DNA from: Myxococcales bacterium
GTDB lineage: Bacteria; Myxococcota; UBA727; GCA-2721815
Direction of reading: 5' to 3'
Length of the DNA: 64,000 nt
NCBI GenBank assembly: GCA_002721815.1
Contig: PBLQ01000001.1
Span: 288,317 to 352,316, forward strand
Below, piece by piece: positions 19,980 through 46,861 of this stretch. The position numbers and the translations under genes are program-made. Below the pieces are notes generated by a model, which had not been told where the DNA came from, ran no database searches, and saw nothing but the letters and a program-made list of their open reading frames with translations. Every line of letters starts with the position of its first letter. The first letter of the stretch is position 1.

Positions 19980-20005
19980 GCTCATTGATCACCTCCACCT
20001 TTGGG

Positions 20006-31300: not shown

Positions 31301-32210
31301 TTGGACAAAAGTTGTCACAGGCGCGCACCACACTTGCGCCCTAAGACAAGTCGGCTCCAGCGAGGAGTTCGACGCGGATGAACTGTACCCGTTAGAGTAT
31401 TACCATCAACCCTATTGCTGGGGTCTCAATTTCATGGGTCAAGTCCCTCAGGGAGGCTCTTACTACGAAGACGAATCAGGGGAGATCAGTAACGGGTCGA
31501 GTTGCGTCCTTGATCTTTATGAAAGTTACTTTTTTGAAATTATCCCTGGCGTCTTTGAGTGGGATAGTTATGACAATAGATATCGCGAGTACAGCAACCA
31601 ACTCACCATCACACCGATGCCCACCCTCGTTGGTAGTCAGAATGATCAGGATTGGACAGATATTGCTGCGGGCGCTTACCATTCTTGCGGTATCCGTGGC
31701 GATAATGGTTCCCTCTTTTGCTGGGGCGATAATCGCTACGGGCAACTGGGAATCGGAAACTCGCCCACACAAGCCGACCAACCCCGCTTCGTAGGTACTG
31801 GCTGGTCTAAGGTTTTTGCAGGGTATTATCGTACTTGTGCGATTAAATCAGACAGCTCACCAACGGATCCAAATACCCTTTGGTGCTGGGGACTCGAAGC
31901 TGCAACCAGCCTGGGACAAGCCGAACGCAGTGCGGATGTCTGCAATATCCCCAAAGCGGTCAATTATGAAAGCGATCAAAGCCAAGAGTTTTTCGAAGAT
32001 CTCACCTCACCTCATAGCACCTGTCAGCGCCTCCCCACCAAAGTCTCCGAAGACACCGACTTTAACGAACTTCAGTTTGGCTTCTTGCACACCTGCGCAC
32101 TCAAAACTGATGATTCATTATGGTGTTGGGGCAACAACCAATACGGCCAGCTGGGCGATGGCGATATTTTGAGTACAACGCCACTCAATATTTCAATCAA
32201 CAGCAACTAA
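25341..32210 (+). CDS. Giant (2289 aa) lipoprotein with eukaryote-like modular architecture: calcium-binding EGF-like domains, about 13 Sushi/CCP (complement-control-protein)-like modules, further cbEGF modules, and a C-terminal RCC1-type repeat (beta-propeller) region of about 1000 aa
   Basis: RBS aggag at 25331-25335, ATG at 25341. Lipoprotein signal [23 protein letters not shown]. cbEGF: [35 protein letters not shown] (D-I-N/D-E-C...C.N..GSY.C.C..G(F/W/Y)), at least 5 copies. CCP-like: [57 protein letters not shown] and about 12 more, each with a conserved Trp and a C...C.C...G(Y/H)xLxG...C...G.WS...P.C pattern. RCC1-like: [93 protein letters not shown]. Its stop overlaps the convergent hydrolase gene by 4 nt. 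Confidence 0.85.
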   Translation: [2289 protein letters not shown]

Positions 32211-33016
32211 AGCGCGCGCAAGAATTCTTGCAGCGCTCGGGCGTAATCAGCGGAATAAGCATCGTTGTGCCCACCGCCGCGAATGGTGATGAATTCTTTG
32301 GGCTCGTTCGCCGCCGCAAAGAGTTCCTGGCCTAAAGCGTAGGGCACGATTTCATCGCGATTCCCGTGGCTGATCAACACCGGTCCTTGGTAATCTTTAA
32401 TGTTATCGATGGACGGGTATTTGTTTTGCATCAACAACTTCACCGGCAAAAAAGGATAAATGGTTTGGGCCACATCGGGCATGGTGGTGAAGGTGCTTTC
32501 GAGAACCAAAGCTTTGGGCTGGTGGTGCTTGGCCAAATGACTGGCCACGCTGCCCCCTAAAGACCGCCCTAAAATAACGACGTCTTCTGTTTTAATGTTT
32601 GAGATTTTCGCCAATTCCAAAAGCGCCGCTTCACCGTCTTGGTACAACCCTTCTTCGTTGGGTTGGCCTTCGCTCTTGCCGTAACCGCGGTAATCCACTC
32701 CCATCACCGTGAACTGGTGGGCGGTGGCCAGGTGTCTTAAAATCTCGGCGCGATGCCCAATGTGACCCGCGTTGCCGTGCAAATACAACAAGTGGCCCTT
32801 GGCGTTTTCGGTTTTGTGCACCAAGGCATGGAGTTTGTTGCCATCGGCATTGGTAAAGAAGTGGTCTTGCAGCGCATCGTCAGGTTGCAGATCATCAAAG
32901 GCGGTCCACGGTGCGGGAAAATAAACCATGCTGTTTTCGAGAAAAGCCAAAACCATACATAACCCCACATAGAAACAAGCCACGGAAACGGACGATACAA
33001 ATAGGCCGCGTTTCAA
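32207..33016 (-). CDS. Alpha/beta-hydrolase fold serine hydrolase (signal-anchored)
   Basis: N-terminal hydrophobic anchor (LFVSSVSVACFYVGLCMVLAFL). HGNAG oxyanion-region motif. Nucleophile elbow GRSLGGSVAS (GxSxG). Asp in HGNRDEIVP. His in GGGHND. Confidence 0.8.
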   Translation of the reverse strand: MKRGLFVSSVSVACFYVGLCMVLAFLENSMVYFPAPWTAFDDLQPDDALQDHFFTNADGNKLHALVHKTENAKGHLLYLHGNAGHIGHRAEILRHLATAHQFTVMGVDYRGYGKSEGQPNEEGLYQDGEAALLELAKISNIKTEDVVILGRSLGGSVASHLAKHHQPKALVLESTFTTMPDVAQTIYPFLPVKLLMQNKYPSIDNIKDYQGPVLISHGNRDEIVPYALGQELFAAANEPKEFITIRGGGHNDAYSADYARALQEFLRAL

Positions 33017-33031
33017 TTCATGGCCTCTCGT

Positions 33032-34528
33032 TTATTTGAACCATTTTTTATTCACTTTATCGGCCAGGTTGGACACGAGGAGTTCTGCCATGCGACCCAA
33101 CTGGTTCCCAATCGTGGGCTTTGCAAAGCTTTCGGTTTGGCTTTTAATGCCCGTGGCCTCCTCTAATTCTTGGGCCGCCCATTGCGCCTCGAGAACGTCG
33201 GCGCCTTCTAACAGCACGTGCTGATTCAGCCCTTCTTTGATGCCCAAGTCGAACCTTCGCTGACGACGATTCTCAAAAAAACCTGGCTCGTGGAGGAAAT
33301 AATCAACACCGTTAAGCTGGGCCGTTTCACCTGAATGAATCACCGTTTCTTTGTTGTTCAGCAATCGGCTGATCACAAATGTTTTTGGCCCGATGCGAAT
33401 GCGCCGGTTGCTCATCACCTGTTTGGCCAAAGACCACAACCGAAAAGAGGTGCCACCCACCAAGAGCGCAGACACCAAGGCGCCGCCAAAACCCAAGGGC
33501 AAGCGAACCATAAAGCCAGACCACAACAGCGCCATGCCAACCCCCATCACCGCCACCAAAAGGCGTCGGCGATCATTGAAGGAGACTTTTTTGGCTGTCG
33601 ACAAAACAAAGGTGCCGTCTGATTCAAGTTGAACCTGGAGCCTGGCCCCCACCGGCTTGGTAAGGGCCCCCGTGTGCTCTGCGCGCGACACCGGAAAACG
33701 CGGTTTTTGGGCCTCGGCCCATGCCTGTGGGTTATTCATGTATTCGAGCAGCAATGCCGGAGACTCAAAACGATCTTCAATGGCCGGTTCGACCATTTTT
33801 TCGAGTAAGGGCGCAAGGGTGTGTTCGGCATTGACGTAAGACGAAAAATCAATCTTCATGCGCGTGTGGGGGAGATCTGAAGGCACCACGCCAGTTAACA
33901 AATGGATGAGCGTGGCCCCCACGGCATAAATGTCACTTTGCGGACAAGCGCGGCCTTGAAACTGCTCGGGCGCCATATAACCAAAAGTGCCCACCACGGT
34001 GGAGCCCAAGGCGGTGTGCGAAGACATTTTGTCTTTAGCCGCACCAAAGTCCACCAGTTTTACATTGAGCTGCTCATCCACGATGATGTTGGCGGGCTTA
34101 ATATCGCGATGAACCACGGGCGGGTTTAAATTGCCCAAATACACCAAAACCTTTAGCAGCTGTTTTCCGATTTTGGTGATCTCGGCATTTGAAGGGGTCC
34201 AATCACTGTTTAACTTTTCTTTAAGGCTTTGACCTTTGGCATATTCTTGGACCAGGTAATGTGAATCTTCATCATCCGAATGAACATAGTCTAAAAATTG
34301 AGGAATGTTGGGGTGCTTAAAACCTTTCAACACCGCCACTTCACGCTCAAATAATTCGAAGGCTTTCCAATCGTTCAGCTTGGTCATGGATATGGCTTTG
34401 ATGGCCACCTCTTTGTCACTTTTTGCGTCCGTGGCCAAATAAGTGGTGGCAAAGGCCCCTTGCCCCAAAACCCGTTGTACTTCGTAACGCCCATCGATGT
34501 TGGCGCCTATTGATAAATTTTCAACCAT
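33032..34528 (-). CDS. Hanks-type Ser/Thr protein kinase with C-terminal transmembrane segments and an extracytoplasmic tail. It is the gene just downstream of the five-gene secreted-protein array on the same strand.
   Basis: GQGAFATTYLA...VAIK; HRDIKPANIIV; DFGAAK; GTFGYMAPE. Hydrophobic stretch LLVAVMGVGMALLWSGFMVRLPLGFGGALVSALLVGG. Confidence 0.9.
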   Translation of the reverse strand: MVENLSIGANIDGRYEVQRVLGQGAFATTYLATDAKSDKEVAIKAISMTKLNDWKAFELFEREVAVLKGFKHPNIPQFLDYVHSDDEDSHYLVQEYAKGQSLKEKLNSDWTPSNAEITKIGKQLLKVLVYLGNLNPPVVHRDIKPANIIVDEQLNVKLVDFGAAKDKMSSHTALGSTVVGTFGYMAPEQFQGRACPQSDIYAVGATLIHLLTGVVPSDLPHTRMKIDFSSYVNAEHTLAPLLEKMVEPAIEDRFESPALLLEYMNNPQAWAEAQKPRFPVSRAEHTGALTKPVGARLQVQLESDGTFVLSTAKKVSFNDRRRLLVAVMGVGMALLWSGFMVRLPLGFGGALVSALLVGGTSFRLWSLAKQVMSNRRIRIGPKTFVISRLLNNKETVIHSGETAQLNGVDYFLHEPGFFENRRQRRFDLGIKEGLNQHVLLEGADVLEAQWAAQELEEATGIKSQTESFAKPTIGNQLGRMAELLVSNLADKVNKKWFK

Positions 34529-34588
34529 GGCTTTGGTATAGCAAGTATGAGGTTTTCATCACAAGATCCATGTTGACGGCCCGAAAAA

Positions 34589-36418
34589 CTACCAGGTGAC
34601 TGGGACGGCCCTGTTTCGTTGGGTGGCATTTGTTCCGTCACCGATTTGGCCAAAAGAGTTGAGTCCCCAGCAATAGGCAAAATAGCCATCAACAATGGCG
34701 CAGGTGTGATCTTTGCCCGTATAGAGGCGCCGCCAAAACATTTCATCGGGAACATCGATTTCTTTGTAAGGCTGAGCCGTTTGCAAGTATTCATCTCCCG
34801 TGCCGCACGCGCCGTAATTATTAAAGCCCCAACAAGCGATCTTATGGGATTCATCTAAAACACAACTGTGATGGCCGCCGCTCTGAACGATTTGAATCTG
34901 TTGTGTGTAAAGACCCGTGGGTGTCACGGGAGACTCCTGAAGCGCACCACCGGGCGTTCCGTCATCCATTTGTCCAAAACCATCACTGCCCCAGCAAAGA
35001 ACCTTATTGCCTTCGACCATGGCGCACGAATGGTGATACCCCAATGCGACATGACCCACACTCACCACATCATATTCCTCTAAAACATTGATGGGCTCAC
35101 CGTGGTTTTCACCTGCGTCTATTAAACACTGGGCAGCATGGTTAATGCCCCAACACATGAGCTTCACATCGTCCGTCACCACGCAGGCATGTGAGTCCCC
35201 TATATGAACCTCACGAATTTCATCGGCGCCGCTCAAACCTGATACCAGTTTCGGGGTCATGGAACTTTCAAACAAACCGTTGCCGAGCTGACCCAGATCT
35301 CCTTTGCCCCAGCAAAATACTTTCGCTTGCTCGCCCATTGCCTGGGTGACCGCACACGTGAACATGCGTCCACCCGCCACTGAGACGACCGGGTCTTCCA
35401 AGGCCGTCACTTGAACCGGCTCTCTTCGAGTGATGGTGGTATTATCTCCCAGCTCTCCAAAGGCATTTGAGCCCCAGCACCACAAGGTCTGATCGGACTT
35501 GATGGCACACATGTGGTAGGCCCCAGCTGCAATGTAGTGGACGTCTTTAAAGTCAGGAATAACGCCTGGCACATTTCGGTCCTCTCCCGGCAACGAGCCA
35601 TCACCCAAGGTGTCGGAGCGACCCCAACAAGCCACCTCGCCAATACCGCCATGTAACACCGCGCAGGTACTCATCTCATCGAGCGCCATCCGCATCACTT
35701 TCACCGAAGGCTCGGTAGGCGGATCTTCATCGATCGGCTCGGGCGGATTGCCTGCATCAAATGGAGGCTCGGGCGCCACGCCCGCATCAATGATGGCTAG
35801 ACCAGCGTCGTCAGGCTCACTCAGTTGCAGACCCGCATCAAAAGGAGGCAAACAGGCGCCCTCCAAACAACCGTGGGGGCAGTCAACATAGGTCGGCACA
35901 TAGCGGCAGATTCCTTCTACACACTCTCCGTCTTGCTCGTAAATCATCAAGGTCATGTCATCGAGACATGCTTGCTCGGGTGGGTTGTCACAATCACCAC
36001 AAATCACCTCTTCGACCCCTTCTCCCTTGAGGTTGATGAGGGTTTCGGCCTTGTTTTGACTGTTGCTCACCAGTTTCAAAACGCCCTCGTAGGCCTGGGC
36101 TGCAGCGGGGGTAAAATTGATGCTCAGATCTACGGACTGACCGCCTAAGATCGACAGCTCTGAGCCCAACACCATGAAGACACCTTCATCGGATTCGATG
36201 GTTATGTTTTCGAAGACCAGCTCTTGTTGACCGGCATTGGCCAATTGGACGGTTCGGCTGGCAGTGAAATTGAGGGGCAACTCACCAAAATCGAGAAGGT
36301 CGGTGCCCACCACCAACAACGGCGGGTTTTGCACCACATAAGCCTCAGTGTCGCAACCGCCACAGGCCGTGTTGAGACCAGTGAACAGACACAACATTAT
36401 CAAGACAAAATATTTCAT
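34589..36418 (-). CDS. Secreted protein, array member 5 (last transcribed): N-terminal Ig-like 'choice-of-anchor D'/ASH-like module, an 8-Cys module and a C-terminal RCC1-type beta-propeller
   Basis: Signal peptide MKYFVLIMLCLFTGLNTACGGC. CDTEAYVVQNPPLLVVGTDLLDFGELPLNFTASRTVQLANAGQQELVFENI...LKLVSNSQNK...LKGEG. ICGDCDNPPEQACLDDMTLMIYEQDGECVEGICRYVPTYVDCPHGCLEGACL. RCC1-like CWG repeats: VACWGRSDTLGDG, LWCWGSNAFGELGDN, VFCWGKGDLGQLGNG, LMCWGINHAAQC, VLCWGSDGFGQMDDG, IACWGFNNYGACGTG, AYCWGLNSFGQIGDG. Confidence 0.85.
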   Translation of the reverse strand: MKYFVLIMLCLFTGLNTACGGCDTEAYVVQNPPLLVVGTDLLDFGELPLNFTASRTVQLANAGQQELVFENITIESDEGVFMVLGSELSILGGQSVDLSINFTPAAAQAYEGVLKLVSNSQNKAETLINLKGEGVEEVICGDCDNPPEQACLDDMTLMIYEQDGECVEGICRYVPTYVDCPHGCLEGACLPPFDAGLQLSEPDDAGLAIIDAGVAPEPPFDAGNPPEPIDEDPPTEPSVKVMRMALDEMSTCAVLHGGIGEVACWGRSDTLGDGSLPGEDRNVPGVIPDFKDVHYIAAGAYHMCAIKSDQTLWCWGSNAFGELGDNTTITRREPVQVTALEDPVVSVAGGRMFTCAVTQAMGEQAKVFCWGKGDLGQLGNGLFESSMTPKLVSGLSGADEIREVHIGDSHACVVTDDVKLMCWGINHAAQCLIDAGENHGEPINVLEEYDVVSVGHVALGYHHSCAMVEGNKVLCWGSDGFGQMDDGTPGGALQESPVTPTGLYTQQIQIVQSGGHHSCVLDESHKIACWGFNNYGACGTGDEYLQTAQPYKEIDVPDEMFWRRLYTGKDHTCAIVDGYFAYCWGLNSFGQIGDGTNATQRNRAVPVTW

Positions 36419-36559
36419 TCATTACACCTGCCAACATCAGACGTCGGTTTTGAAATCTGCAAAGGAGATTTTACCGGAAAACCACCACGCGTCCAAGCCT
36501 GTAAACCAATTTAAGCCGTTAATAGGTCCCTAATGCGATCATTCGGGGTTAAGATCCGT

Positions 36560-38344
36560 TTACCACGACACCGGCACAGGAACGTACTGGTTCATTTCGG
36601 TACTGCCAGCCCCGAGCTGACCATAGCCATTGGAGCCCCAACAGAACACTTGATGCTCCGAGTCTGCCGCGCAGGTGTGGGATGACCCCCCGTAAACCCG
36701 ATACCATTGCGTATCATTGGCGGGGGCAACAATGGGCATGAGGCTCTGCTTCTCTTGCACATTTGCTTCTCCCGATCCGCACGCCCCGGAGGAATTATGA
36801 CCCCAACAAGAAATGGTGCGATCCATCATAATGGCACAAGAATGATACGACCCACTGGCAATCCCCAACACCGGATCATCCTCGAGACCTGCTGGTGACA
36901 TGATCTGGGCGTATTGTGCCACATTGCTGTCCGCGTCGACCTGGCCGTAGCCATTCCCCCCCCAACATTTCACCTTGTCATCTTTTTCGATCACACAAGA
37001 ATGATGCATCCCCAATGCCAACTGTTGCATGGGGTTGTTGTCGTCCTCTTCGTAGACTTCCACAGGGGTGGCTTGATTTTGGGTGTTGTCCGAGACCAAG
37101 CACTGGTTGTGGCCATTCCATCCCCAGCAATACACTTGATTGGACTCTAACATGGCACACACATGATATTCTCCGGCTTCGATGCTGATAAGGGACACCC
37201 CCTCTGGCAAGCCCGTTACTTGCTCCGCCGTGGTGGAATTATCAAACGAGCCATTCCCCAGCTGCCCCCAATCGCCTTGCCCCCAACAGTACACCTTCTG
37301 TTCAGCGTCCGTTTCGTCAGCACGGGTCACCGCACAAGTGAAGTTGCGGCCGGCGGTGAACATTTCGACGGGATCTTCAATCACGCTCACCAACTGGGGG
37401 GTGTAATCGGTGATGTTGCTGCCATTGCCCAGCTCACCATAATTATTGATGCCCCAACACCATAGCGTGTTGTCGATTTTGCTGGCGCACATGTGATAAG
37501 AACCCGCCGCAAGATATTTCACATCGGTAAAATTAGGAATCACCAGCGGCACATTGCTGTCCGTGGTCACGTCTGGCCCCTGGCCCAAAATACCGTGATA
37601 CCCCCAACACGCCACTTGCTTATCTTCATCTTGCCACAGCAGCGCACAAGACCCTGCCTGTCCCAATGCCATGGATAACATAGAGAAATGGCCGTCCAAT
37701 ATCTCATCGGAAACCCCAGCATCCATGACCGGATCCGACTCTGGAACCACGCCGGCGTCTCCCTGTGGCAAACACGCCCCATCTTCACAGCCATAAGGAC
37801 AGAAAACAGTGCTGGGCTCATACCGACAGATGCCTTCGACGCACTCACCGTCTTCAACGTAAATCATTAAGGTGTTTTCATCCAAACAGGTGTCCTCTGG
37901 CGGGTTGTTACAGTCTTCACAAACGACGTCTTCATCGCCCTCTCCCGTTAAAGAAATGGTGGTCTCAGACTTGTCTTGCGAATTGCTCAAGATGGTGAGG
38001 GTGCCTTCATACACTTTGGCCTCTAAGGGTTTGAATGAAACGATCAAGTCCATGGACTGCCCACCCAGAATACTGGTTTCACCGGGTGTGATGGTGAAGA
38101 CATCGCCTCCCTCGCTGATTTCAATGTTTTCAAAAACCAACTCTTGCTGGCCAGCGTTGGCCAGCTGAATCGTTCTAGAGGCGATATAGTCCACAGGAAT
38201 TTTACCAAAATCTAAAAGATCGGTACCGGAAACCAATAAAGGAGGATTGCTAACGACGTAAGCTTCAGTGTCGCAGCCACTGCAATTCAGTTGAAAACTT
38301 GCCAATCCAATTACCAATGCGGACAACCAACCTTGGCGCATCAC
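36560..38344 (-). CDS. Secreted protein, array member 4: Ig-like module, 8-Cys module and RCC1-type beta-propeller (closest paralog of 34589..36418)
   Basis: MMRQGWLSALVIGLASFQLNCSGCDTEAYVVSNPPLLVSGTDLLDFGKIPVDYIASRTIQLANAGQQELVFENI. VCEDCNNPPEDTCLDENTLMIYVEDGECVEGICRYEPSTVFCPYGCEDGACL. CWG repeats (LWCWGINNYGELGNG, VYCWGQGDWGQLGNG, VYCWGWNGHNQC, VKCWGGNGYGQVD, ISCWGHNSSGACGSG, VFCWGSNGYGQLGAG). Confidence 0.85.
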   Translation of the reverse strand: MMRQGWLSALVIGLASFQLNCSGCDTEAYVVSNPPLLVSGTDLLDFGKIPVDYIASRTIQLANAGQQELVFENIEISEGGDVFTITPGETSILGGQSMDLIVSFKPLEAKVYEGTLTILSNSQDKSETTISLTGEGDEDVVCEDCNNPPEDTCLDENTLMIYVEDGECVEGICRYEPSTVFCPYGCEDGACLPQGDAGVVPESDPVMDAGVSDEILDGHFSMLSMALGQAGSCALLWQDEDKQVACWGYHGILGQGPDVTTDSNVPLVIPNFTDVKYLAAGSYHMCASKIDNTLWCWGINNYGELGNGSNITDYTPQLVSVIEDPVEMFTAGRNFTCAVTRADETDAEQKVYCWGQGDWGQLGNGSFDNSTTAEQVTGLPEGVSLISIEAGEYHVCAMLESNQVYCWGWNGHNQCLVSDNTQNQATPVEVYEEDDNNPMQQLALGMHHSCVIEKDDKVKCWGGNGYGQVDADSNVAQYAQIMSPAGLEDDPVLGIASGSYHSCAIMMDRTISCWGHNSSGACGSGEANVQEKQSLMPIVAPANDTQWYRVYGGSSHTCAADSEHQVFCWGSNGYGQLGAGSTEMNQYVPVPVSW

Positions 38345-38376
38345 TCACCTCCACCCAATCAAAAAAAGTGCTTTAT

Positions 38377-41300
38377 TTAAGGGATTAGATACGCATCAGG
38401 AATGTTTTGGTCAATATAGTTCGGCTTGCCCCAGCATCTAATTTTATTTTCATGCGTGACGACGCAGGTGTTCACCTGACCCGTCGCAATATCCCAATAG
38501 GTTTCTTCCACGTCTGGCACATCTGCTTGTCCTGCCGCACCGACACCAGTGGTGCCTCCCCAACAGTGGGCCTTCCCCGTATCTGCTGCCAAACCGCACG
38601 CGTGCAACCAGCCAATGGACAGCCGTCCAAAGATGACGTCTTCAGGCACATTGGTGTATCCGAATTGGGTTGGGCCCCAACACTTCACCAGACCATCTGT
38701 CATGAGTCCGCAAGTTTGATAGGGTGCTATGCGCCCGGATAGAAAAGTGAGCCCGGTAGCGGGAACAGAACTCGCGTACGAATGCTCGCCCCAACATAAT
38801 AATGTGCCATTTTCTCTGAGCGCACAACCGTGTCGATAAGCCACTTCCACGTGAGCAAAAGGTCCGGCCGGGATGTCATTATACAAGGTTGCCAAGCCCG
38901 GAAGATCTTGCCCCCAACATACAATTTCACCGTCGATGTCCAAGGCGCAATTTTTGTTCACATTGGCATTGACCATGATGAACTGGCCCGGTTGGGCAGT
39001 TGCTTGTCCGTAGTCGTTCGAGCCCCAACACGCCATGGTGCCGTCCAATCGAATACCGCAGCCGTGATCCGTTCCAATATCAATCTGAGCAAAATCGGTG
39101 GGCGCCTCATCCTGCTTGCTCACAATTTTTCCGCCGCCCCAGCACTCGATTTGTCCCATCGCATCCTTCACGCAAGCTGCCCGGCTGTCCACCACCAGCA
39201 ACATTTCGCAATGGTTGCCAACGCCAGTTCGATTCACGTCCACTTGGGTTGGATTATAAACCTCCGGGCAGTTATCTTCCTCGGCGCATAGCCCGTCTTC
39301 GTCAATGTCGTTATCTGGGTCATTGGGACAGACGTCACAAATGTCACCCACACCGTCCAGATCCGAATCGGCTTGGTCCTCGTTGCTCACAAAAGGGCAA
39401 TTGTCTTCATCAGCACAGTGGCCATCCGAATCGATGTCGTTATCGGGATCATTCGGACAAATATCGCATACATTTCCCTCGCCATCGGCGTCATTGTCTT
39501 CTTGACCCACATTGGCGTCTTCGGGGCAGTTATCGCAAATATTGCCCACGCCATCTTCGTCAACGTCTGTTTGATCTTCATTGCTTACCGTGGGACAATT
39601 ATCACAAGCGTCACCTATGTTATCGCCATCACTGTCGGCCTGATTAACATTCACCACTTCGATGCAGTTATCATCGCTGTCACATACGCCATCCTGATCG
39701 GTATCTACCCCCACCTCTTCAGGGCATGCATCACAGACATCGCCGACATCATCCCCATCGCTATCGGTTTGATCATTATTGGGTATCCCCACGCAATTAT
39801 CACACAGGTCGCCCACGCCGTCGTCATCGCCATCATTTTGAAAACTGTTGCTCACCGAAATACAATTATCACACACATCGCCTACGCCATCCGAATCACC
39901 ATCTTCTTGTTCGGGGTTTGAGATAGAGACACAGTTATCGCACAGGTCGCCCACCGAATCTTCGTCGCTGTCGTCTTGGTAATAGTTGGCGGTCGAGACA
40001 CAATTATCACACACGTCGCCGCGGCCGTCTTGATCTATATCAGACTGGTCATCGTTGGGGGTATCTGGACAATTGTCTTCGCTGTCACAGGAGCCATCAC
40101 CGTCGGAATCATCACCCTCATCATAAGGACAAACATCGCATACGTCCCCCACACCATCTTCATCTTCATCGGCCTGATCAGCATTGGTGGCTTGGGGACA
40201 ATTGTCACAAGCATTACCAAGGTCATCTTCATCTGAATTCAGTTGGTCGAAATTTGAGACGTTCACACAGTTATCGCACACATCGCCAATGTTATCGCTG
40301 TCGCCATCGGCTTGATCTGCATTGCTGTTCAATGGACAATTATCACAAACATCGCCGTGACCATCGTCATCGTCGTCGGCTTGGTCTGTATTGGCATCGA
40401 CCAAACAATTGTCGCATACATTCCCGATGCCGTCGCCGTCTGCATCCGCTTGATTGGTGTTGAACAGGGCCACGCAATTATCACAAATATCGCCCACCTG
40501 ATCTTCATCGCTGTCCGCTTGATCTTCGTTCGCATCATAGGGGCAGTTATCACAGACGTTGCCCAGGCCATCGTTGTCTGAATCTGCCTGGTTGGTATTG
40601 GCCGCAAGAATGCAGTTGTCATCGCTGTCACACACCCCATCTGCATCGGTATCATCACCTGCATCAGCCGGGCATACATCACAAGCGTCCCCAGCACCGT
40701 CTTGATCTGAATCGGCTTGGGAGGCATTGGAAACAGTGGCGCAGTTGTCACAAATATTCCCTGTGCCGTCTTCATCCGTATCTTCTTGGTACGCATTGGC
40801 CATTTGCGGACAGTTGTCACAGAGATCACCGATGCCATCTTGATCTGAATCGGCCTGATCTGTGTTCGCCGTATCCTTGCAGTTATCATCGCTGTCACAG
40901 ACGCCATCCGCATCACTGTCGTCTTCAAAATCATTGGGGCACGTATCGCAAACATCGCCTTTGCCATCAAAGTCAGTATCGATTTGATCTACATTGGCAT
41001 CATCGGCGCAATTATCGCACAGGTCTCCGAGACCATCTTCATCTTCGTCGCTTTGATCACTGTTCGGGGTTTCCAGACAGTTATCACAGGCATCGCCCAC
41101 CCCATCATCGTCTGCATCAACCTGGTCGGCATTGGGTACGGCGACACAGTTGTCCTCTTCGTCTATGATGCCATCGCTATCGGTATCTGGTGCCGTCAGG
41201 CATGCCCCGTCTTCGCAACCATAAGGGCACAGTTGCGACTGGGCACGATAACGGCAGACGCCTTCCACACATTCGCCATCCTCCACATAGGTCAACAAGG

Positions 41301-41811
41301 TGTTTTCATCTTCACAAACTGGCGTGGGCGGGTTGTCGCAATCCCCACAAATCAACGCGTCAGAGCCCAGGCCCCACAAATCCACCACCACGTCTTTGCC
41401 GCTGGCTTGATTGCTTACTATGGTCAAGGTGCCCACATATTCTTGCGCGAACAATGGCGTGAACGACACAATGACATCCATGGTGTCTCCGCCGAGCACG
41501 TCTTGCTCCATAGCTGTGGCCAAAAAGACATTGCCCTCGGTCTCCACCAGGAGGTCTTCAATGCTGAGGGTTTGTTGACCCGCATTCGCCAACTGGATGG
41601 TGCGGCTCGCGGTATAGCCCACCTGCAGTTCACCAAAATCAACCAAATCGGTGGCCACCACCAACAAAGGCGGGTTGCGGACCACAAAAGCTTCGCTTTC
41701 ACAGCCAGTTCCCCACATGGACAGGCCGAGCAGACTCCATGTTAAAAGATGACGCAGGAAGGGTGTCATAGGTGTCCTCTTAAGGTTCGGTACCTGGGTT
41801 GGACCCACCAA
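38377..41811 (-). CDS. Secreted protein, array member 3 (1144 aa): Ig-like module, 8-Cys module, a very long run (about 25 copies) of thrombospondin type-3 calcium-binding repeats, and a C-terminal RCC1-like propeller
   Basis: N-terminal module GCESEAFVVRNPPLLVVATDLVDFGELQVGYTASRTIQLANAGQQTL...ICGDCDNPPTPVCEDENTLLTYVEDGECVEGVCRYRAQSQLCPYGCEDGACL. TSP3 repeats of the form DTDxDGIxDxxDNCxxxxNxDQxDxDxDGxGDxCDNC. The C-terminus has CWG repeats (IECWGGGKIV, MACWGSNDYGQA, IVCWGQDLPG, LLCWGEHSYA, VKCWGPTQFG, AHCWGGTTGVG, IRCWGKPNYI). Confidence 0.85.
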   Translation of the reverse strand: MVGPTQVPNLKRTPMTPFLRHLLTWSLLGLSMWGTGCESEAFVVRNPPLLVVATDLVDFGELQVGYTASRTIQLANAGQQTLSIEDLLVETEGNVFLATAMEQDVLGGDTMDVIVSFTPLFAQEYVGTLTIVSNQASGKDVVVDLWGLGSDALICGDCDNPPTPVCEDENTLLTYVEDGECVEGVCRYRAQSQLCPYGCEDGACLTAPDTDSDGIIDEEDNCVAVPNADQVDADDDGVGDACDNCLETPNSDQSDEDEDGLGDLCDNCADDANVDQIDTDFDGKGDVCDTCPNDFEDDSDADGVCDSDDNCKDTANTDQADSDQDGIGDLCDNCPQMANAYQEDTDEDGTGNICDNCATVSNASQADSDQDGAGDACDVCPADAGDDTDADGVCDSDDNCILAANTNQADSDNDGLGNVCDNCPYDANEDQADSDEDQVGDICDNCVALFNTNQADADGDGIGNVCDNCLVDANTDQADDDDDGHGDVCDNCPLNSNADQADGDSDNIGDVCDNCVNVSNFDQLNSDEDDLGNACDNCPQATNADQADEDEDGVGDVCDVCPYDEGDDSDGDGSCDSEDNCPDTPNDDQSDIDQDGRGDVCDNCVSTANYYQDDSDEDSVGDLCDNCVSISNPEQEDGDSDGVGDVCDNCISVSNSFQNDGDDDGVGDLCDNCVGIPNNDQTDSDGDDVGDVCDACPEEVGVDTDQDGVCDSDDNCIEVVNVNQADSDGDNIGDACDNCPTVSNEDQTDVDEDGVGNICDNCPEDANVGQEDNDADGEGNVCDICPNDPDNDIDSDGHCADEDNCPFVSNEDQADSDLDGVGDICDVCPNDPDNDIDEDGLCAEEDNCPEVYNPTQVDVNRTGVGNHCEMLLVVDSRAACVKDAMGQIECWGGGKIVSKQDEAPTDFAQIDIGTDHGCGIRLDGTMACWGSNDYGQATAQPGQFIMVNANVNKNCALDIDGEIVCWGQDLPGLATLYNDIPAGPFAHVEVAYRHGCALRENGTLLCWGEHSYASSVPATGLTFLSGRIAPYQTCGLMTDGLVKCWGPTQFGYTNVPEDVIFGRLSIGWLHACGLAADTGKAHCWGGTTGVGAAGQADVPDVEETYWDIATGQVNTCVVTHENKIRCWGKPNYIDQNIPDAYLIP
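39350..41170 (-). repeat. Internal coding repeat region of about 1.8 kb: tandem thrombospondin type-3 (TSP3) repeat units within 38377..41811
   Basis: Repeated 'gacaattgtccc.../atcacagac...gatgg' DNA words and protein units (D-x-D-x-D-G-x-G-D-x-C-D-N-C-x-x-x-x-N-x-D-Q). The region generates spurious ORFs on both strands in other frames. Confidence 0.8.
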
Positions 41812-41876
41812 AGAGGTGAAAAGTTACAAATTTACGAGAGGGGCAATCTGTTGTTTTTTCTAAACATTTCGCTAAT

Positions 41877-43601
41877 TTAGTCACCATAGGTGTCGACCAA
41901 ATAGCGCAGGCCTGGGTTTGGACTGCCAGGATCACCTGAATAGACCACAAAGTTGAGATTTTCATCGAGCACTTCAAACCGAGGAAATGCATTTCCCAAA
42001 TAAGGAGAGAACTGGCATTCGGTATCCGGGAGCACCAATATTTTGTCGTTGGGCCATTCCTCGTGCCAGGCCGCTGCGTCTTCTTGAGAGGGTGGGTTGC
42101 CGGTGCAAGACCCTTTCAACACTCGGATCCAGTACACATCGTCGTTCATCAATATGTCATAAACTTCTTCGTAATCAGGGTGCCACCAGCCGCCGGTGTT
42201 GGGATCTGAATTCTCGGGCGGCTCGTCCCAGGGCTGATGATCCCAGCACTCAATGCCGCACGACACATTTTCGCTGGTAGCACCTGGGTCACCGGCCACC
42301 ATAAACGCTGCAAAACCATTGCTGCCCTGATTGAACTTGCTGGCCAATGCCAACTCAATGACAATGTCACGTCCACGGTTCATGAAATCATATAAGTCCA
42401 CCGTATCCCCGAACTGATCCTCGCTCGACCAATTGGGAAACCGAACCCCTTCGTCGGGTTCTTCGTCAGAATCCCAACCGGGATCTTCTTCCTCGTCTTT
42501 AAAACGGTTGTATGGCCAGCCCCCTTCATAGATGACATCCTCTGCATCTTGGGGGTCGGTCCCAGCGTGCACTTCATCCAAATCGGAATAGCCATCGTTA
42601 TCACTGTCATCGTCGCAAGCATCACCGGGACCTTCTCCATCTGTATTGGTTTGGTCTGGGTTGGCCGTATCAACACAGTTGTCGCATAAATCACCAACGC
42701 CATCCTGATCTGCATCCTCCTGCGCCTCGTTGTCATCGAATGGACAATTATCACAGGCATCTCCTAAGGAATCGGCGTCGCTGTTCTCTTGCTCGGTATT
42801 GGTATCATCCACGCAATTATCGCAAGCATCCCCAACGCCATCTTCGTCGGAATCGTCCTGAGACGCATTGTCATGGAGTGGACAGTTGTCACAAGCATCC
42901 CCTACGGAATCGCCATCGCCGTCTTCTTGTTCGAAATTCGGCACAGCCACACAGTTGTCCTCATTATCTGGGATACCGTCTTCGTCTTGATCTGGGGCTG
43001 GCTCCCCTTCGGGCAAACAGGCACCATCTTCGCAGCCAAAGGCACAGGTGGTTTCTTCGGGGTAATACCGACAAACGCCTTCGACGCACTCCCCTTCTTG
43101 GGTATAGGTGAGTAAAGTATTTTCATCCAAGCAGGTGGGCTCTGGCGGCTCATCGCATTCTCCGCAAATCACTTCAGCCCAACCTTCTCCCAAGAGCTGA
43201 ATGGTTCGCTCCGTTTGCTGGTTATCATTGGAAATAATAGTGAGCGTGGCCTCATAGGCTTTTTCTTCGGCCGGCGTGAAGCCCAGGTTGATCATGACGG
43301 AATCACCCCCTCGAATTTCCGACGATTCAAGGGTGGCCATAAAGACCGCGTCGTCCGATTCCACCTCAATACGATCGATCACCAACATTTGCTGGCCCGC
43401 ATTGGCCAGTTGAATTTTTCGCATGCCCGTGTAGCCCAGGGGCATCAAACCAAAATCCAAAATATCAGTGGCCACCACCAACAGTGGCGGGTTACTCACC
43501 ACGAAGGCCTCCCGATCACAGGCCGTACCCAAACTAATACTCATCCCAAGTAGAATGGGAGTGATCAAACGAAAGAATGAGTTTCTCAGTCGGTGTCTCA
43601 C
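41877..43601 (-). CDS. Secreted protein, array member 2: Ig-like module, 8-Cys module, TSP3 repeats (about 6), and a unique acidic C-terminal domain with a thioredoxin-fold-like segment lacking CxxC
   Basis: N-terminal ACDREAFVVSNPPLLVVATDILDFGLMPLGYTGMRKIQLANAGQQMLVIDRI...ICGECDEPPEPTCLDENTLLTYTQEGECVEGVCRYYPEETTCAFGCEDGACL. TSP3 repeats: DQDEDGIPDNEDNCVAVPNFEQEDGDGDSVGDACDNCP and others. C-terminal RFPNWSSEDQFGDTVDLYDFMNRGRDIVIELALASKFNQG resembles a TlpA/redoxin beta-alpha-beta start but has no Cys pair. Confidence 0.8.
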   Translation of the reverse strand: MRHRLRNSFFRLITPILLGMSISLGTACDREAFVVSNPPLLVVATDILDFGLMPLGYTGMRKIQLANAGQQMLVIDRIEVESDDAVFMATLESSEIRGGDSVMINLGFTPAEEKAYEATLTIISNDNQQTERTIQLLGEGWAEVICGECDEPPEPTCLDENTLLTYTQEGECVEGVCRYYPEETTCAFGCEDGACLPEGEPAPDQDEDGIPDNEDNCVAVPNFEQEDGDGDSVGDACDNCPLHDNASQDDSDEDGVGDACDNCVDDTNTEQENSDADSLGDACDNCPFDDNEAQEDADQDGVGDLCDNCVDTANPDQTNTDGEGPGDACDDDSDNDGYSDLDEVHAGTDPQDAEDVIYEGGWPYNRFKDEEEDPGWDSDEEPDEGVRFPNWSSEDQFGDTVDLYDFMNRGRDIVIELALASKFNQGSNGFAAFMVAGDPGATSENVSCGIECWDHQPWDEPPENSDPNTGGWWHPDYEEVYDILMNDDVYWIRVLKGSCTGNPPSQEDAAAWHEEWPNDKILVLPDTECQFSPYLGNAFPRFEVLDENLNFVVYSGDPGSPNPGLRYLVDTYGD

Positions 43602-43603
43602 AA

Positions 43604-45463
43604 TTACTCTTCATCCGTTGTGGGTTGATAGATTTCGGGGATACCGTTTTGAATGGCGTTGCTTTGCCCCCAACAAATCAACTTGTTTTCCATCGTGAAG
43701 GCGCAGGTATTGTTTTGTGCTGTGACCAGATCCCAAAATTCGGGCGCATCCTCAGGTGGGGTCATTTGCCCCCGATCATGAATGGAATCGCTCGATCCCC
43801 AGCAGACCGGCTGCTGGTCCGCCTCAGTGAGGGCACAAGCGTGATAATAGCTCACCGATATTTTGCTTAAAGGGACTTCGGGCCCATCATCAAAGCCCCC
43901 AACGCTTCCCCAGCATAATAGCTCATCATCCTCGGTGATGGCACAGTTTTGATAAGGTGCCAGGCTAAAGCCACGAACAACCTTGCCCTCAACGTCGGTG
44001 TGCGATGCGCAGGTACTGGCCCCCCAACACAACATTTCACCAGATGCGCGCAAGGCGCAAGCATGGCGGTATCCCACTTGCACATCGACAAAGGGGCCTT
44101 CCGGAATGCTCCCATACAAGTTCTCGAAAGTGGTGCCTTCGGGTGCCGATGCCCCCTGCCCCCAGCATTTCACTTCGCCTTCAGCGGTCACCGCACAGGA
44201 ATGATGGGTATTGGCGCTCACCATTTTATAAAGACCTGCCGGAGCCATGGATTGGCCATGCTCATACCCGCTCCCTGTGTCGGTGGTTCCAGCGCCCCAG
44301 CATTGAATTTCACCATTTTGGCGCACCCCGCAGCCATGGGCTTGTCCCAGATCGATCTGCACGTAGTCTGTGGCGGCCTGTGAAACAGAAGATACAATTT
44401 CGCCACCACCCCAACAGTCTACGCCGCCATCAATGTCTTTCACGCAGGCGGCAAAAGTTCCTAACGCCAAAATCAGCTCGCAACGGTCACCCACGCCATT
44501 TTGGTTGCTATCGGTTTGATTGGGGTTCGCCACCGTAATGCAATTATCATCGCTGTCACAAACCCCATCGGCGTCCACATCGTTACCGCTGTCTTCTGGA
44601 CACATGTCACAAAGGTCACCAGCGCCATCGGTATCCTCATCTCCTTGTTCTGGATTGGGAACGTCCACACAATTATCGCAAACATCACCGACCCCGTCTT
44701 CATCGGTATCGGTTTGATCCGCATTGGGAATGCCAGGACAATTATCACAAGCATCACCAACCCCGTCATCATCTTCGTCAGCCTGATCTGCATTGGGAAC
44801 GGTAATACAATTGTCGTCCCCATCTAAAATACCGTCCGCATCTTCATCCGGGGCGGGCAAGCAACGGGCATCTTCACAGCCGTAAGGACAGTCTACCTCG
44901 GTGGGTACGTAGCGGCAGACGCCTTCAACACACTCTCCCTCTTCGGTGTAAACCAGCAAGGTGTTTTCATCAGCGCAAACGTCCTCTGGAATTTGATCGC
45001 AGGTCCCACATATAATCTCCTCAAAACCTTCACCCTTGAGTAAGATTTCAGCTTCCGTTTTGTTTCGACTGTTGCTGGTGAGCACCAAAATCGCTTCGTA
45101 TGCTTTTTCTTCTTTCGCAGTAAAAGACACCAATAGCTCGATGGATTCACCATAATTAATCTCACCTGCATTGGGCCCGATAGAAAAAACATCGGTGTCT
45201 CCAGTGATGGTCATGTCCTCAAAAACAAGCTTTTGATCACCCGCATTCACCAACTGGATTTTTCGGGTGGCTGTGTACTCCAAGGGCAACAAACCAAAAT
45301 CCAGGACATCCGTGCCCACCACCAACAAGGGTGGATTTCGCACCACGAAGGCTTCTGATTCACAACCCCCACAATTTAGAGTTCCGAAGGCGATGATTAA
45401 GACAAAAACATTTAAACAATTACGCATGTGGCATCCCCAAAAAAGGTTGGGAAAGCCTAGCAT
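43604..45463 (-). CDS. Secreted protein, array member 1 (first transcribed): Ig-like module, 8-Cys module, TSP3 repeats (about 4) and an RCC1-like propeller
   Basis: Signal peptide MRNCLNVFVLIIAFGTLNCGGC. ESEAFVVRNPPLLVVGTDVLDFGLLPLEYTATRKIQLVNAGDQKLVFEDM; ICGTCDQIPEDVCADENTLLVYTEEGECVEGVCRYVPTEVDCPYGCEDARCL. TSP3: DEDADGILDGDDNCITVPNADQADEDDDGVGDACDNCPGIPNADQTDTDEDGVGDVCDNC. CWG repeats (VDCWGGGEIV, IQCWGAGTTDTG, VKCWGQGASA, MLCWGASTCA, LLCWGSVGGF, PVCWGSSDSI, LICWGQSNAI). 2-nt gap to the next gene. Confidence 0.85.
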   Translation of the reverse strand: MLGFPNLFWGCHMRNCLNVFVLIIAFGTLNCGGCESEAFVVRNPPLLVVGTDVLDFGLLPLEYTATRKIQLVNAGDQKLVFEDMTITGDTDVFSIGPNAGEINYGESIELLVSFTAKEEKAYEAILVLTSNSRNKTEAEILLKGEGFEEIICGTCDQIPEDVCADENTLLVYTEEGECVEGVCRYVPTEVDCPYGCEDARCLPAPDEDADGILDGDDNCITVPNADQADEDDDGVGDACDNCPGIPNADQTDTDEDGVGDVCDNCVDVPNPEQGDEDTDGAGDLCDMCPEDSGNDVDADGVCDSDDNCITVANPNQTDSNQNGVGDRCELILALGTFAACVKDIDGGVDCWGGGEIVSSVSQAATDYVQIDLGQAHGCGVRQNGEIQCWGAGTTDTGSGYEHGQSMAPAGLYKMVSANTHHSCAVTAEGEVKCWGQGASAPEGTTFENLYGSIPEGPFVDVQVGYRHACALRASGEMLCWGASTCASHTDVEGKVVRGFSLAPYQNCAITEDDELLCWGSVGGFDDGPEVPLSKISVSYYHACALTEADQQPVCWGSSDSIHDRGQMTPPEDAPEFWDLVTAQNNTCAFTMENKLICWGQSNAIQNGIPEIYQPTTDEE

Positions 45464-45556: not shown

Positions 45557-46861
45557 TTAGGCACTGCCCATGATCAAACCAGCCACCAACATCAGACTCA
45601 CCAAAGACTGTAAAATGATGGTATTTCGATTCGCGGTAATGAGGCTTCTCTTCTGAAAGTCCCGAAAACAAAGGTAAATGCTGTGCAATGCCATGGGCAG
45701 CAACAAACAGGCCAACAGTGCGCCACTGTTGAACAGACCCGTCTGAACCAACCCAATCACCGCCGCAAAGGCCCCGAGCATAATGCCGGCGTAGCCGAAG
45801 CGAGAAGCTGAAACGCCCAGGGTGACCACCAGATTGTTTTTTCCAGTGGCCTTATCACCAGCATAATCGGGAAACTGGTTGATCCAGAGGATACCGGTGG
45901 TCAAAAGACCTAGGGGCAATCCCATCCAGAAAGCGTTCATGTCGATTTGCCCGGAAAGTGCAGCCACGGTTCCCAAGGTGAGTAGAGGGCCAAAGCACAG
46001 ACCAATGGTGAGCTCGCCCAATCCCCGGCGTGCAATCAGCCGCAAGGGGGGGGCCGTATAGAAGAATCCCAATAAGGCGCCCAGCAATCCCACTTGAGCG
46101 ATGGCCGCACCATATTGCATCACCAATGGGATGCCGCAGACCACCGCAAAGCCCGTTAAAATCGTAGCTAAACGAAACTGCCCTTTTGGAGTGATGAGGC
46201 CCAACTCCACGGACCGGGAACCGCCGGAAAAGGGAAGAAAATAATCGTTATTGGCGTCGTCAGCACCGGACTTGCCATCGAAGTAGTCATTGAACACGTT
46301 CGCCGACAAGTGCAGAAAAATAACGCCGAATAAAGTGAGCCAAAAATTGAGCCAGGGGAAAGCTTGTGAGCCGTTGTACGCCAACCAGACGCCCGCGACC
46401 ACCACCGGGAAAATGCTGGCCGAGAGAAAGGGCGCACGCATGATTACCAACGCCGCAAAAATGCGGGTCATCACGGAAATGGGCGGCATCACTGTTTGGG
46501 GATCCACCTCTGGGACCGGAATCGTCACCCCACAGTAGCCTATTTGCTGACCATCTTTTTTGGTGGGGGTGATTCGAATGTCACAAGCAATGGGCGAGCC
46601 GTCTTTGCGAAGGAACTGGGTTCGGGTCTCAAATTGGCCTTGCTCTACGGCCGTCTTGAGCCACGACTCAATGTGTTCCAGCACCACCAAACCCGGCGAA
46701 AACAAGCTGACACGCTTTTTGCCAATCACCTCTTCGGGTGCGTAACCGAACAGTTCTGCAGCTCCGGGACTGAAAGTCTCGATGCGGCCCTCCAAATCGC
46801 AGGTAATAACGCTCTTTGCGGATGCGGTGGAATTCATACAATTGCTCCTTTTCTGGTTCAC
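45557..46861 (-). CDS. PAS-domain-fused UbiA-superfamily prenyltransferase (MenA-like 1,4-dihydroxy-2-naphthoate polyprenyltransferase type)
   Basis: N-terminal PAS: ITCDLEGRIETFSPGAAELFGYAPEEVIGKKRVSLFSP...DGSPIACDIRITPTKKDGQQIGYCGV. Then about 8 TM helices with Asp-rich motif LHLSANVFNDYFDGKSGAD (NDYxDxxxD, MenA-like) and a second motif region. The true start may be the internal Met (MNSTASAK, 46837), as the 46861 start is GTG and overlaps a palindrome. Confidence 0.7.
   Translation of the reverse strand: MNQKRSNCMNSTASAKSVITCDLEGRIETFSPGAAELFGYAPEEVIGKKRVSLFSPGLVVLEHIESWLKTAVEQGQFETRTQFLRKDGSPIACDIRITPTKKDGQQIGYCGVTIPVPEVDPQTVMPPISVMTRIFAALVIMRAPFLSASIFPVVVAGVWLAYNGSQAFPWLNFWLTLFGVIFLHLSANVFNDYFDGKSGADDANNDYFLPFSGGSRSVELGLITPKGQFRLATILTGFAVVCGIPLVMQYGAAIAQVGLLGALLGFFYTAPPLRLIARRGLGELTIGLCFGPLLTLGTVAALSGQIDMNAFWMGLPLGLLTTGILWINQFPDYAGDKATGKNNLVVTLGVSASRFGYAGIMLGAFAAVIGLVQTGLFNSGALLACLLLPMALHSIYLCFRDFQKRSLITANRNTIILQSLVSLMLVAGLIMGSA

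Follow-up and report, generated by a model that had tools for sequence, protein, structure and literature searches.

What do the five tandem genes for secreted proteins studied here encode, and do they belong to a rapidly changing recognition system or to a more ordinary part of the cell envelope? The genes, named P1 to P5, are consecutive on the minus strand of a 64,000-nucleotide (nt) stretch of DNA from an uncultured marine "Myxococcales bacterium" (assembly GCA_002721815.1, contig PBLQ01000001.1, positions 288,317 to 352,316). This whole stretch is referred to as the window. The original prediction, made from the sequence alone, described an operon-like array with a fixed N-terminal cassette, composed of an immunoglobulin (Ig)-like domain and a module with eight cysteines (8-Cys), and with shuffled C-terminal modules; it proposed that the family is under diversifying selection, as in prey recognition or kin discrimination. 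The answer that we prefer, with confidence and doubt in roughly equal measure, is that the paralogs of the array are old and conserved and encode envelope lipoproteins, in which TSP3 stalks that are graded in length, and binding heads that differ between the proteins, stand on an Ig/8-Cys pedestal. Seen in this way, the array would be a fairly ordinary family of the adhesin/receptor type and not a fast-evolving recognition system. The array and the two genes that follow it on the same strand are composed as follows, with P1 to P5 given from their longest open reading frame (ORF) starts.

43604-45463, minus strand: P1 (619 amino acids); Ig at amino acids 34-150, 8-Cys module at amino acids 151-201 (DNA 44861-45013), about five TSP3 repeats and a CRINKLY4/ACR4-like propeller of the RCC1 type
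41877-43601, minus strand: P2 (574 amino acids); Ig, 8-Cys module (43017-43169), about five TSP3 repeats plus one bacterial TSP3 repeat, and a putative thioredoxin-fold domain without CxxC (about 41880-42539)
38377-41811, minus strand: P3 (1144 amino acids); Ig, 8-Cys module (41200-41352), about 26 TSP3 motifs (about 39322-41187) and an ACR4-like propeller
36560-38344, minus strand: P4 (594 amino acids); Ig, 8-Cys module (37772-37924), a DAG/Pro-rich linker and a seven-blade propeller of the RCC1/UVR8 type
34589-36418, minus strand: P5 (609 amino acids); Ig, 8-Cys module (35852-36004), a DAG/Pro-rich linker and a canonical RCC1-type propeller
33032-34528, minus strand: Hanks-type kinase (498 amino acids; Pkinase, 157 bits)
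32207-33016, minus strand: alpha/beta hydrolase (269 amino acids; Pfam Hydrolase_4 and Abhydrolase_1)

The shared cassette is found in all five proteins. Alignment confirmed it at 43-69% identity between the paralogs, with eight invariant cysteines within 51-53 amino acids at the spacing C-x2-C-x7-C-x14-C-x4-C-x8-C-x3-C-x4/6-C. Local hidden Markov models (HMMs) recognise the Ig part of P1-P5 with E-values of 1e-47 to 1e-56 and the 8-Cys part with E-values of 1e-27 to 1e-32. At about amino acids 40-140 of each protein, the Ig matches the HYDIN/VesB/ASH family of Pfam (PF22544) with 36-54 bits, against a cut-off of 25.5. In a Foldseek search, the Ig of an AlphaFold2 (AF2) model of the cassette (predicted local distance difference test, pLDDT, 82.6) matched HYDIN (1.5e-7; 2ys4 and 2e6j), CEP192 and VesB of Vibrio cholerae (1.5e-6). 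P1-P5 thus combine a PF22544 score above threshold with a PapD-like beta-sandwich, as expected of an Ig of the ASH or HYDIN-VesB type (PF22544, PF15780).

Three further members of the family had been suggested elsewhere in the window, at the following positions.

50634-52244, minus strand: P6; a divergent cassette (8-Cys DNA about 51636-51794), a Cys-rich region and an uncharacterised C-terminal domain
57661-60930, plus strand: P7; a lipoprotein with EGF-like and TSP3 modules and two RCC1-like propellers, without the Ig/8-Cys cassette
63565-64000, plus strand: P8; Ig present (HMM E-value 1.6e-24), with the 8-Cys module barely begun at the window end

Two of them held up. In a six-frame translation of the window, the Ig HMM found exactly seven ORFs (P1-P5, 50634-52244 and 63565-end; E-values 1e-24 to 1e-56) and the 8-Cys HMM found six, the seventh Ig carrier being cut by the window end. 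P6 has the full cassette, with 26-30% identity to the other members in the Ig and 41-47% in the 8-Cys module, and P8 has the Ig part. P7 contained neither module by Pfam or by the local HMMs, and its resemblance to the array proteins is limited to the lipobox and to the TSP3 and RCC1 module types. As to the identity of the Ig, the ASH-like assignment stands, and the choice-of-anchor D assignment that had been offered beside it (NF012200, cut-off 45 bits) is reached by P4 only, at 45.4 bits, with P5 at 44.6 and P1, P2, P3 and P6 at 31-40; the family is related to this domain, with most members scoring too low for it.

Behind this fixed cassette the C-termini differ, and Pfam together with the alignments bore out the predicted mixture of TSP3, RCC1 and thioredoxin-like modules. 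The TSP_3 family (PF02412, cut-off 25) scores 47 bits in P1, 49.5 in P2 and 223 in P3, so that genuine TSP3 repeats are present in these three proteins. DxDxDxxxD motifs number about five in P1, about five in P2 and 26 in P3, the strict form DxDxDGxxDxCD occurs three, four and 22 times, respectively, and P4 and P5 have only the DAG/Pro-rich linker. TSP3 repeats bind calcium and are stapled by disulfides in thrombospondins and in bacterial OmpA; in the array proteins they may act as calcium-stiffened stalks. The view of a modular, extracytoplasmic and predicted calcium-binding family of paralogs is supported by these data.

RCC1 repeats forming full propellers were found in P1, P3, P4 and P5 (PF00415, PF13540 and PF25390), and these appear to fall into two classes. 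In the first, the canonical seven-blade RCC1/UVR8 type, P4 and P5 score 214 and 199 bits with WD40_RLD (cut-off 150). The best match of the P4 propeller in the PDB is UVR8 (E-value 1e-34), and P5 is placed with it by its Pfam scores and by 47% identity to P4, of which it is an old paralog. In the second, the ACR4-like class, P1 and P3 score 100 and 83 bits with RCC1_2 (cut-off 22); the best PDB sequence match of the P1 propeller is the ACR4 ectodomain (7a0j, E-value 1e-12), and P3 is grouped with P1 by about 40% identity across the propeller region. The plant proteins ACR4, a receptor kinase whose RCC1-like propeller is used extracellularly, and UVR8 are likenesses of P1/P3 and P4/P5, respectively; the array proteins differ from them in being bacterial, apparently lipid-anchored and without a kinase fusion, and there is no evidence of shared ligands.

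The head of P2 is of another kind. Its C-terminus gave no direct match in Pfam, including matches up to an E-value of 10, or by sequence in the PDB. It has 31 homologs, nearly all small (about 130-360 amino acids), with one bacterial TSP3 repeat ahead of the domain; those aligned start with lipobox-like N-termini, and several match AhpC-TSA, Redoxin or Thioredoxin_2 (PF00578, PF08534 and PF13098) or are named thiol-disulfide isomerase. The module aligns over its full length, in the order TSP3_bac-GGWPYN-Trx and with 30-41% identity, with lipoprotein oxidoreductases of the TlpA/ResA type that contain bacterial TSP3 (P0195, P0198 and P0217). These proteins keep WCxPC, whereas P2 (ASKFNQGS at this position) and its ortholog (AGMFNASG) have lost the motif and carry the module fused behind the Ig/8-Cys cassette. 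The thioredoxin-like character that had been proposed for this C-terminus is supported through the homologs as regards the fold, but not as regards oxidoreductase activity, for which the catalytic CxxC is gone; the P2 head thus appears to be a "redox-dead" thioredoxin fold without catalytic cysteines, in other words a natural pseudo-thioredoxin. Ligand binding is the most likely function of the heads as a group.

Homology and gene order in relatives suggest that this set of paralogs is old. NCBI GCA_002471515.1 and several TARA and ENA assemblies contain the same locus, with a nucleotide identity of 99.8-99.99%, and TARA fragments P0007 and P0008 match P3 and P5. Besides these near-identical assemblies, we used contigs L002 and L003, which represent one sister species, L001, which is from a more distant relative, and L004, which is from a 94.8%-identical population. 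In L003 and L002, genes for a MarR regulator, a polyprenyl synthase and a PAS-UbiA fusion are followed by four family members, the kinase, the hydrolase and a convergent giant RCC1/Sushi/EGF gene. The four members have the same architectures and order as P1, P2, P3 and P5, and their counterparts in L003 are as follows.

P1: L3_A, 63% identity (best reciprocal)
P2: L3_B, 51% identity
P3: L3_C, 67-70% identity
P5: L3_D, 71% identity
Kinase: 67% identity in L003, and 63-67% across L001 and L003
Hydrolase: 89% identity, in the same position
UbiA: 79% identity

No ortholog of P4 was found in L003/L002; in L001, the one family member retained between UbiA and the kinase is orthologous to P4. Since the orthologs are 1:1 across species, the paralogs are older than the splits between these species. 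The set of members (five, four and one) has been trimmed differently in each lineage, with the interval between UbiA and the kinase as a stable home of the family. At the L001 locus, opposite-strand genes (L001 11947-16024, minus strand), with repeated modules within and between ORFs that have no Pfam match, fill the space between the single member and the kinase, so the gene content here varies between species.

The gene conversion or module shuffling that a fixed cassette might bring to mind left no recent trace. Paralogous DNA is 65-68% identical, the sole tandem repeat at the DNA level is a 69-nt TSP3 unit in P1, and there is no sign of recent conversion or expansion. Concerted evolution of the cassette by gene conversion was considered and set aside because no high-identity DNA tracts connect the paralogs, and the shuffling proposed originally gives way to paralogs that are old and stably maintained. 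It should be noted that the cassette identities between orthologs (47-74% in the Ig domain) are not clearly above those between paralogs given earlier.

The fused, single-copy cassette seems to be rare and lineage-restricted. In a word-index-limited search of 5.8 billion proteins, which also missed the window's own full-length proteins, a cassette profile matched 11, each from a marine metagenome; only two loci were found in JGI metagenomes. Two pattern scans of contigs, one for the cassette and one for the kinase, found no relatives among the GTDB species representatives.

With respect to the N-terminus, a single Cys at the end of the hydrophobic signal region is invariant in all members and in all homologs whose N-terminus is intact; it is preceded by G, A or S and followed by the motif (D/E)-x-E-(A/T)-(F/Y)-V. 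The CxxC that had been described in front of this motif is present in P1, P4 and P5 (three of the five) and so is not a family-wide feature; the single Cys is the invariant residue. Measured against the lipobox [LVI][ASTVI][GAS]C, all members and homologs have G, A or S at position -1 and S, T, G or C at position -2. Related proteins with an Ig and several 8-Cys modules begin with the canonical lipoboxes LAAC and VSAC, and canonical lipoboxes (LTGC, VSAC, IVGC and LTSGC) are also present in neighbouring genes of the window. Because the Cys is invariant and these distant relatives and neighbouring genes have canonical lipoboxes, P1-P5 are probably lipoproteins that are lipidated on this residue, and the idea that the cassette serves as an anchoring handle fits the lipobox-like Cys.

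The starts assigned to the genes matter for this point. The true start of P3 is probably Met15 (ATG at 41769), because the identity between TARA fragment P0007 and P3 is complete from Met15 on. P1 is called from Met13 (607 amino acids) in the metagenome-assembled genome (MAG) at NCBI. Public gene calls (L007/L008) begin P2 at Met20 (555 amino acids) and P3 at Met32 (1113 amino acids); these starts cut off most or all of the signal peptide, and automated localisation predictions made from them would therefore be wrong.

As for the location, the array proteins are very acidic, with an isoelectric point (pI) near 4, and each contains 23-81 Cys, which would fit an oxidising, Ca-rich environment outside the cytoplasm. 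In Myxococcus xanthus, Lys at position +2 marks inner-membrane lipoproteins and Ala at +7 marks matrix lipoproteins, and in Escherichia coli it is Asp at +2 that keeps lipoproteins in the inner membrane (PMC3222651). The array family always has D or E at +2, never Lys, and V at +7, so these positions do not reveal the location; with the evidence as a whole, we consider an outer-membrane or surface location probable. In the scheme that we favour, each protein would be exported by its signal peptide and lipid-modified on the invariant Cys directly before (D/E)xE(A/T)(F/Y)V. The PapD/ASH-type Ig and one disulfide-knotted 8-Cys beta-hairpin module would then form a shared membrane-proximal pedestal. 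On it would stand a Ca2+-loaded, disulfide-stapled TSP3 spacer, absent from P4 and P5, of about five repeats in P1 and P2 and of about 26 in P3. The C-terminal domains would be ligand-binding heads (RCC1/UVR8-type in P4 and P5, ACR4-like in P1 and P3, and the redox-dead thioredoxin fold in P2), which would serve the cell, on its surface or within the envelope, in binding or adhesion, each paralog having a distinct and conserved specificity.

The kinase and the hydrolase raise the question of whether the array forms one functional unit with them. From P1 to the hydrolase, the genes are separated by 2, 65, 32, 141, 60 and 15 nt when the longest ORFs are used; the first five gaps, reported originally, were reproduced in the ORF list, and the start of P3 at Met15 changes the P2-P3 gap from 65 to 107 nt. 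That a kinase and an alpha/beta hydrolase lie downstream of P5 on the same strand was confirmed by Pfam. The kinase has the VVHRDIKPANI, DFGAAK and GYMAPE motifs that, with the Pkinase match, identify it as a Hanks-type Ser/Thr kinase; hydropathy shows a two-helix membrane hairpin at amino acids 322-364 followed by a conserved C-terminal domain of about 130 amino acids, and both ends are predicted to be cytoplasmic. The absence of a sizeable periplasmic domain argues against direct periplasmic sensing of the lipoproteins by the kinase. The hydrolase is membrane-anchored and has a GRSLGG nucleophile elbow. Synteny with the family extends to three species for the kinase and to two for the hydrolase, which is absent beside the L001 kinase. 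Co-transcription of the array is plausible: the operon-like packing that had been noted was confirmed in the tight spacing on one strand, and the order is kept in the sister species. No Rfam matches were found.

Several observations weigh against the preferred reading. P6 (ISAC) and L3_B (LGAC) alone have a canonical residue at position -3 of the lipobox, the other sequences having C, G or H there, and the D or E at +2 would, by the rule of E. coli, mean retention in the inner membrane. The topology of the kinase leaves a functional link to the lipoproteins unsupported. Consensus scans for promoter-like sites (17 vs 14.2 expected) and terminator-like sites (14 vs 16.6 expected) were at chance level, so that the case for an operon consists of spacing and synteny. 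Finally, only one member is left beside UbiA in L001.

Some of these points favour another explanation, to which we give a minor but real chance, namely that P1-P5 are periplasm-facing lipoproteins of the inner or outer membrane that do not work at the cell surface but help to build the envelope, or serve the kinase and the hydrolase as scaffolds or signalling partners. This view may be supported by the conserved acidic residue at +2 (PMC3222651), by the position of the kinase beside a family member in three species and by the absence of a recognised surface-export signal or C-terminal sorting tag. On the other hand, the kinase exposes only its hairpin loop outside the cytoplasm, and the inner-membrane signal of M. 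xanthus is Lys at +2 and not Asp (PMC3222651). In addition, Ig domains of the ASH or choice-of-anchor D type, TSP3 repeats and ACR4-like propellers, as well as the multi-copy 8-Cys relatives that carry FG-GAP or disintegrin heads, are characteristic of proteins outside the cell, and about 26 TSP3 repeats would seem too large a spacer for a periplasm.

Somewhat less probable is that the proteins are not lipid-anchored at all, and are soluble secreted proteins or vesicle cargo that serve as lectin-like or matrix-mimicking effectors in predation or in interactions with eukaryotic plankton. The non-canonical residue at -3 of the lipobox would agree with this, as would the eukaryote-like repertoire (TSP3 and RCC1 in the array, EGF and Sushi in a neighbouring gene), the presence of a gene resembling TcB/TcC of Tc toxins in the same window and the finding that some lipoproteins of M. 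xanthus reach the extracellular matrix (PMC3222651). However, the Cys that ends the hydrophobic region of the signal peptide is invariant and outgroup relatives have canonical lipoboxes; furthermore, residue +7 is Val and not the Ala of the M. xanthus matrix signal, and the cluster contains no secretion-system genes.

Whether the family diversifies rapidly was addressed with the ratio of nonsynonymous to synonymous substitution rates (dN/dS), calculated by the Nei-Gojobori method against L004, which covers P4 completely and P3 and P5 in part; since L004 is a contig with 1.2x coverage, sequencing errors may account for some of the differences. The sister species L003 was not used for this purpose, its synonymous sites being judged saturated at 51-71% amino acid identity. 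The values are the following.

P4, whole gene: dS 0.16, dN/dS 0.07
P4, cassette: dS 0.17, dN/dS 0.07
P4, propeller: dS 0.16, dN/dS 0.07
P5, N-terminal part: dS 0.15, dN/dS 0.09
P3, C-terminal part: dS 0.17, dN/dS 0.13

At gene-level resolution, therefore, the array genes covered are under purifying selection, and the comparison of cassette with C-terminal domain gave equal values in P4. Together with the near-identity of the assemblies and the 1:1 orthologs of four paralogs at 51-71%, these values leave the diversifying selection and kin-recognition-like expansion of the original prediction unsupported. Among near-identical assemblies from different samples, not one difference falls in P1, in P2 or in the part of P4 that is covered. 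All differences in array genes are in P3 (8/12 in L007 and 6/7 in L010), five of them nonsynonymous; they concentrate in the TSP3 region (window 38606-40924) and could be real microdiversity or repeat-related assembly noise. That the array is a rapidly diversifying, polymorphic family for recognition of kin or prey, with C-terminal modules shuffled onto a fixed handle, is very improbable: its lineage restriction, local expansion, differing C-terminal modules and varying number of members, the overlap of Ig identities between orthologs and paralogs and the clustering of inter-assembly single-nucleotide polymorphisms in P3 speak for it, but the low dN/dS values in P3, P4 and P5, the same in cassette and head, the invariance of the other genes, the conserved order and architecture of the orthologs and the absence of recent repeats or conversion tracts speak against it.

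The preferred reading, that of conserved envelope lipoproteins, can be compared with several known systems. The first is the outer-membrane-exchange receptor TraA/TraB of M. xanthus, a myxobacterial cell-surface system in which the Cys-rich repeats of TraA have been proposed to form a stalk that displays a recognition head, and in which the partner TraB carries TSP3 repeats (PMC6372800). The differences are considerable: TraA is anchored by a C-terminal MYXO-CTERM and the array proteins would be anchored through an N-terminal lipobox; the TraA head is PA14-like and highly polymorphic, whereas the array heads include conserved RCC1-like propellers under purifying selection; and the Cys repeats of TraA are about 20 amino acids long, as compared to 52-56 amino acids with eight Cys for the array-type module. 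Membership in the TraA/TraB family was rejected on the basis of these differences in anchoring, head type, polymorphism and sequence.

A second candidate was MtsC (NF047638), a MYXO-CTERM protein of cell-cell cohesion that likewise has TSP3 arrays, and whose model P3 matches with 415 bits (cut-off 350). This score is the sum of 15 partial repeat matches, the best of which covers positions 66-124 of 428; moreover, P3 lacks a MYXO-CTERM, ending in ...PDAYLIP, and MtsC lacks the cassette and the propeller, so that this identity was also rejected. A literature search for MtsC found no paper. With regard to the ASH/PapD-like Ig domains of VesB and of choice-of-anchor D proteins, the fold is the same, but the array Ig directly follows the lipobox, whereas choice-of-anchor D is situated ahead of a C-terminal sorting tag.

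A likeness to part of the pedestal comes from proteins with tandem 8-Cys repeats encoded by MAGs of Myxococcota. They were found with a profile built from the six window copies of the module and searched against 1.84 billion representative proteins, which gave 1167 matches at E<=1e-3, 494 at E<=1e-10 and 103 at E<=1e-30. The top 150 are all multi-copy; in a local re-scan they have a median of 6 and a maximum of 18 copies with a period of about 56 amino acids. The tandem arrays span 3-18 copies, usually 5-18, and their named carriers include proteins of Myxococcales/Myxococcota MAGs (MDP3235104.1 and MEW6431828.1); examples are database proteins P0012-P0161 and an array at L006 9338-11365. Among the top matches, 90 of the 141 that start with Met have a lipobox-like N-terminus. 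The repeats mostly start near the N-terminus and are followed by FG-GAP, disintegrin-like or uncharacterised domains, and three of these proteins open with the same ASH-type Ig. The array family differs from them in its other heads and in having exactly one copy of the module, fused to the Ig.

Neither the 8-Cys-repeat proteins nor the isolated module matched Pfam-A or NCBIfam (in Pfam up to an E-value of 10 for the isolated module), and a structure model of the module found no PDB match by fold or sequence search. The 8-Cys module is therefore a generic, widespread and uncatalogued extracellular repeat of which the array family uses a single copy. Consequently, the family specificity claimed for the cassette was half borne out: its parts are generic, the 8-Cys module being widespread and the Ig of the general ASH/PapD-like type, and it is the fused single-copy form that is lineage-restricted.

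A bolder interpretation, which we consider doubtful, is that the 8-Cys unit is a previously undescribed disulfide-rich fold and a general extracellular stalk element of Myxococcota, and that the cluster encodes "height-graded" surface receptors for contact with partners or prey, be they eukaryotes or bacteria, in which the giant EGF/Sushi lipoprotein encoded next to the array would take part. If this is true, a planktonic marine myxobacterium would display eukaryote-like propeller heads from the same pedestal on Ca-stiffened stalks of 0, 5 or 26 TSP3 repeats.

Almost all that is known of uncultured marine Myxococcota comes from MAGs, so that their envelope proteins are the main clue to their interactions with other plankton. 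The locus offers a conserved example of modular lipoprotein design, with a pedestal, a graded stalk predicted to bind Ca and interchangeable heads. The architecture is new; modular surface or envelope lipoproteins of bacteria are already known. No new mechanism is revealed, and the selection data argue against recognition of the arms-race type. The most useful by-product may well be the 8-Cys repeat, which has no Pfam or NCBIfam model and no detectable structural relative and is a target for domain curation and structure determination.

Both sides of the array contain genes that belong to its conserved surroundings.

25341-32210, plus strand: giant lipoprotein (2289 amino acids, lipobox LTSGC) with at least four cbEGF domains, at least seven Sushi/CCP domains and RCC1 propellers
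45557-46861, minus strand: PAS-UbiA prenyltransferase fusion, the upstream flank of the array that is conserved in all relatives

The giant gene converges on the hydrolase gene with an overlap of 4 nt and is kept beside the array in L002 and L003; to our knowledge, Sushi domains are unusual in bacteria. The PAS-UbiA gene, a divergent polyprenyl synthase gene (46957-47955) and the MarR regulator gene together form the conserved left flank of the array (45557-48555) in all relatives. The polyprenyl synthase is 100% identical to an NCBI protein from a MAG of a "Myxococcales bacterium" (CMH56_01125).

Other genes of the window are more remote from the array. The gene resembling TcB/TcC of Tc toxins (5370-11405, plus strand) encodes 2011 amino acids with SpvB, TcdB_toxin_midN, FG-GAP and RHS-repeat domains, and it is preceded and overlapped by an ORF of 1802 amino acids (38-5446, plus strand) without a Pfam match. 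A second Hanks kinase, with a PEGA domain, adjoins genes for a periplasmic-binding protein and a TPR protein (12520-15860, minus strand). Of three consecutive secreted paralogs (17751-21424, plus strand; 32-42% identity), two are without a Pfam match and the third contains a MopE-like Cu-binding motif. Lastly, the desaturase gene differs from an otherwise near-identical TARA scaffold (L009) by 19 mostly synonymous substitutions within 73 nt (53520-53592), a cluster that represents either a recombination tract or a chimeric assembly.

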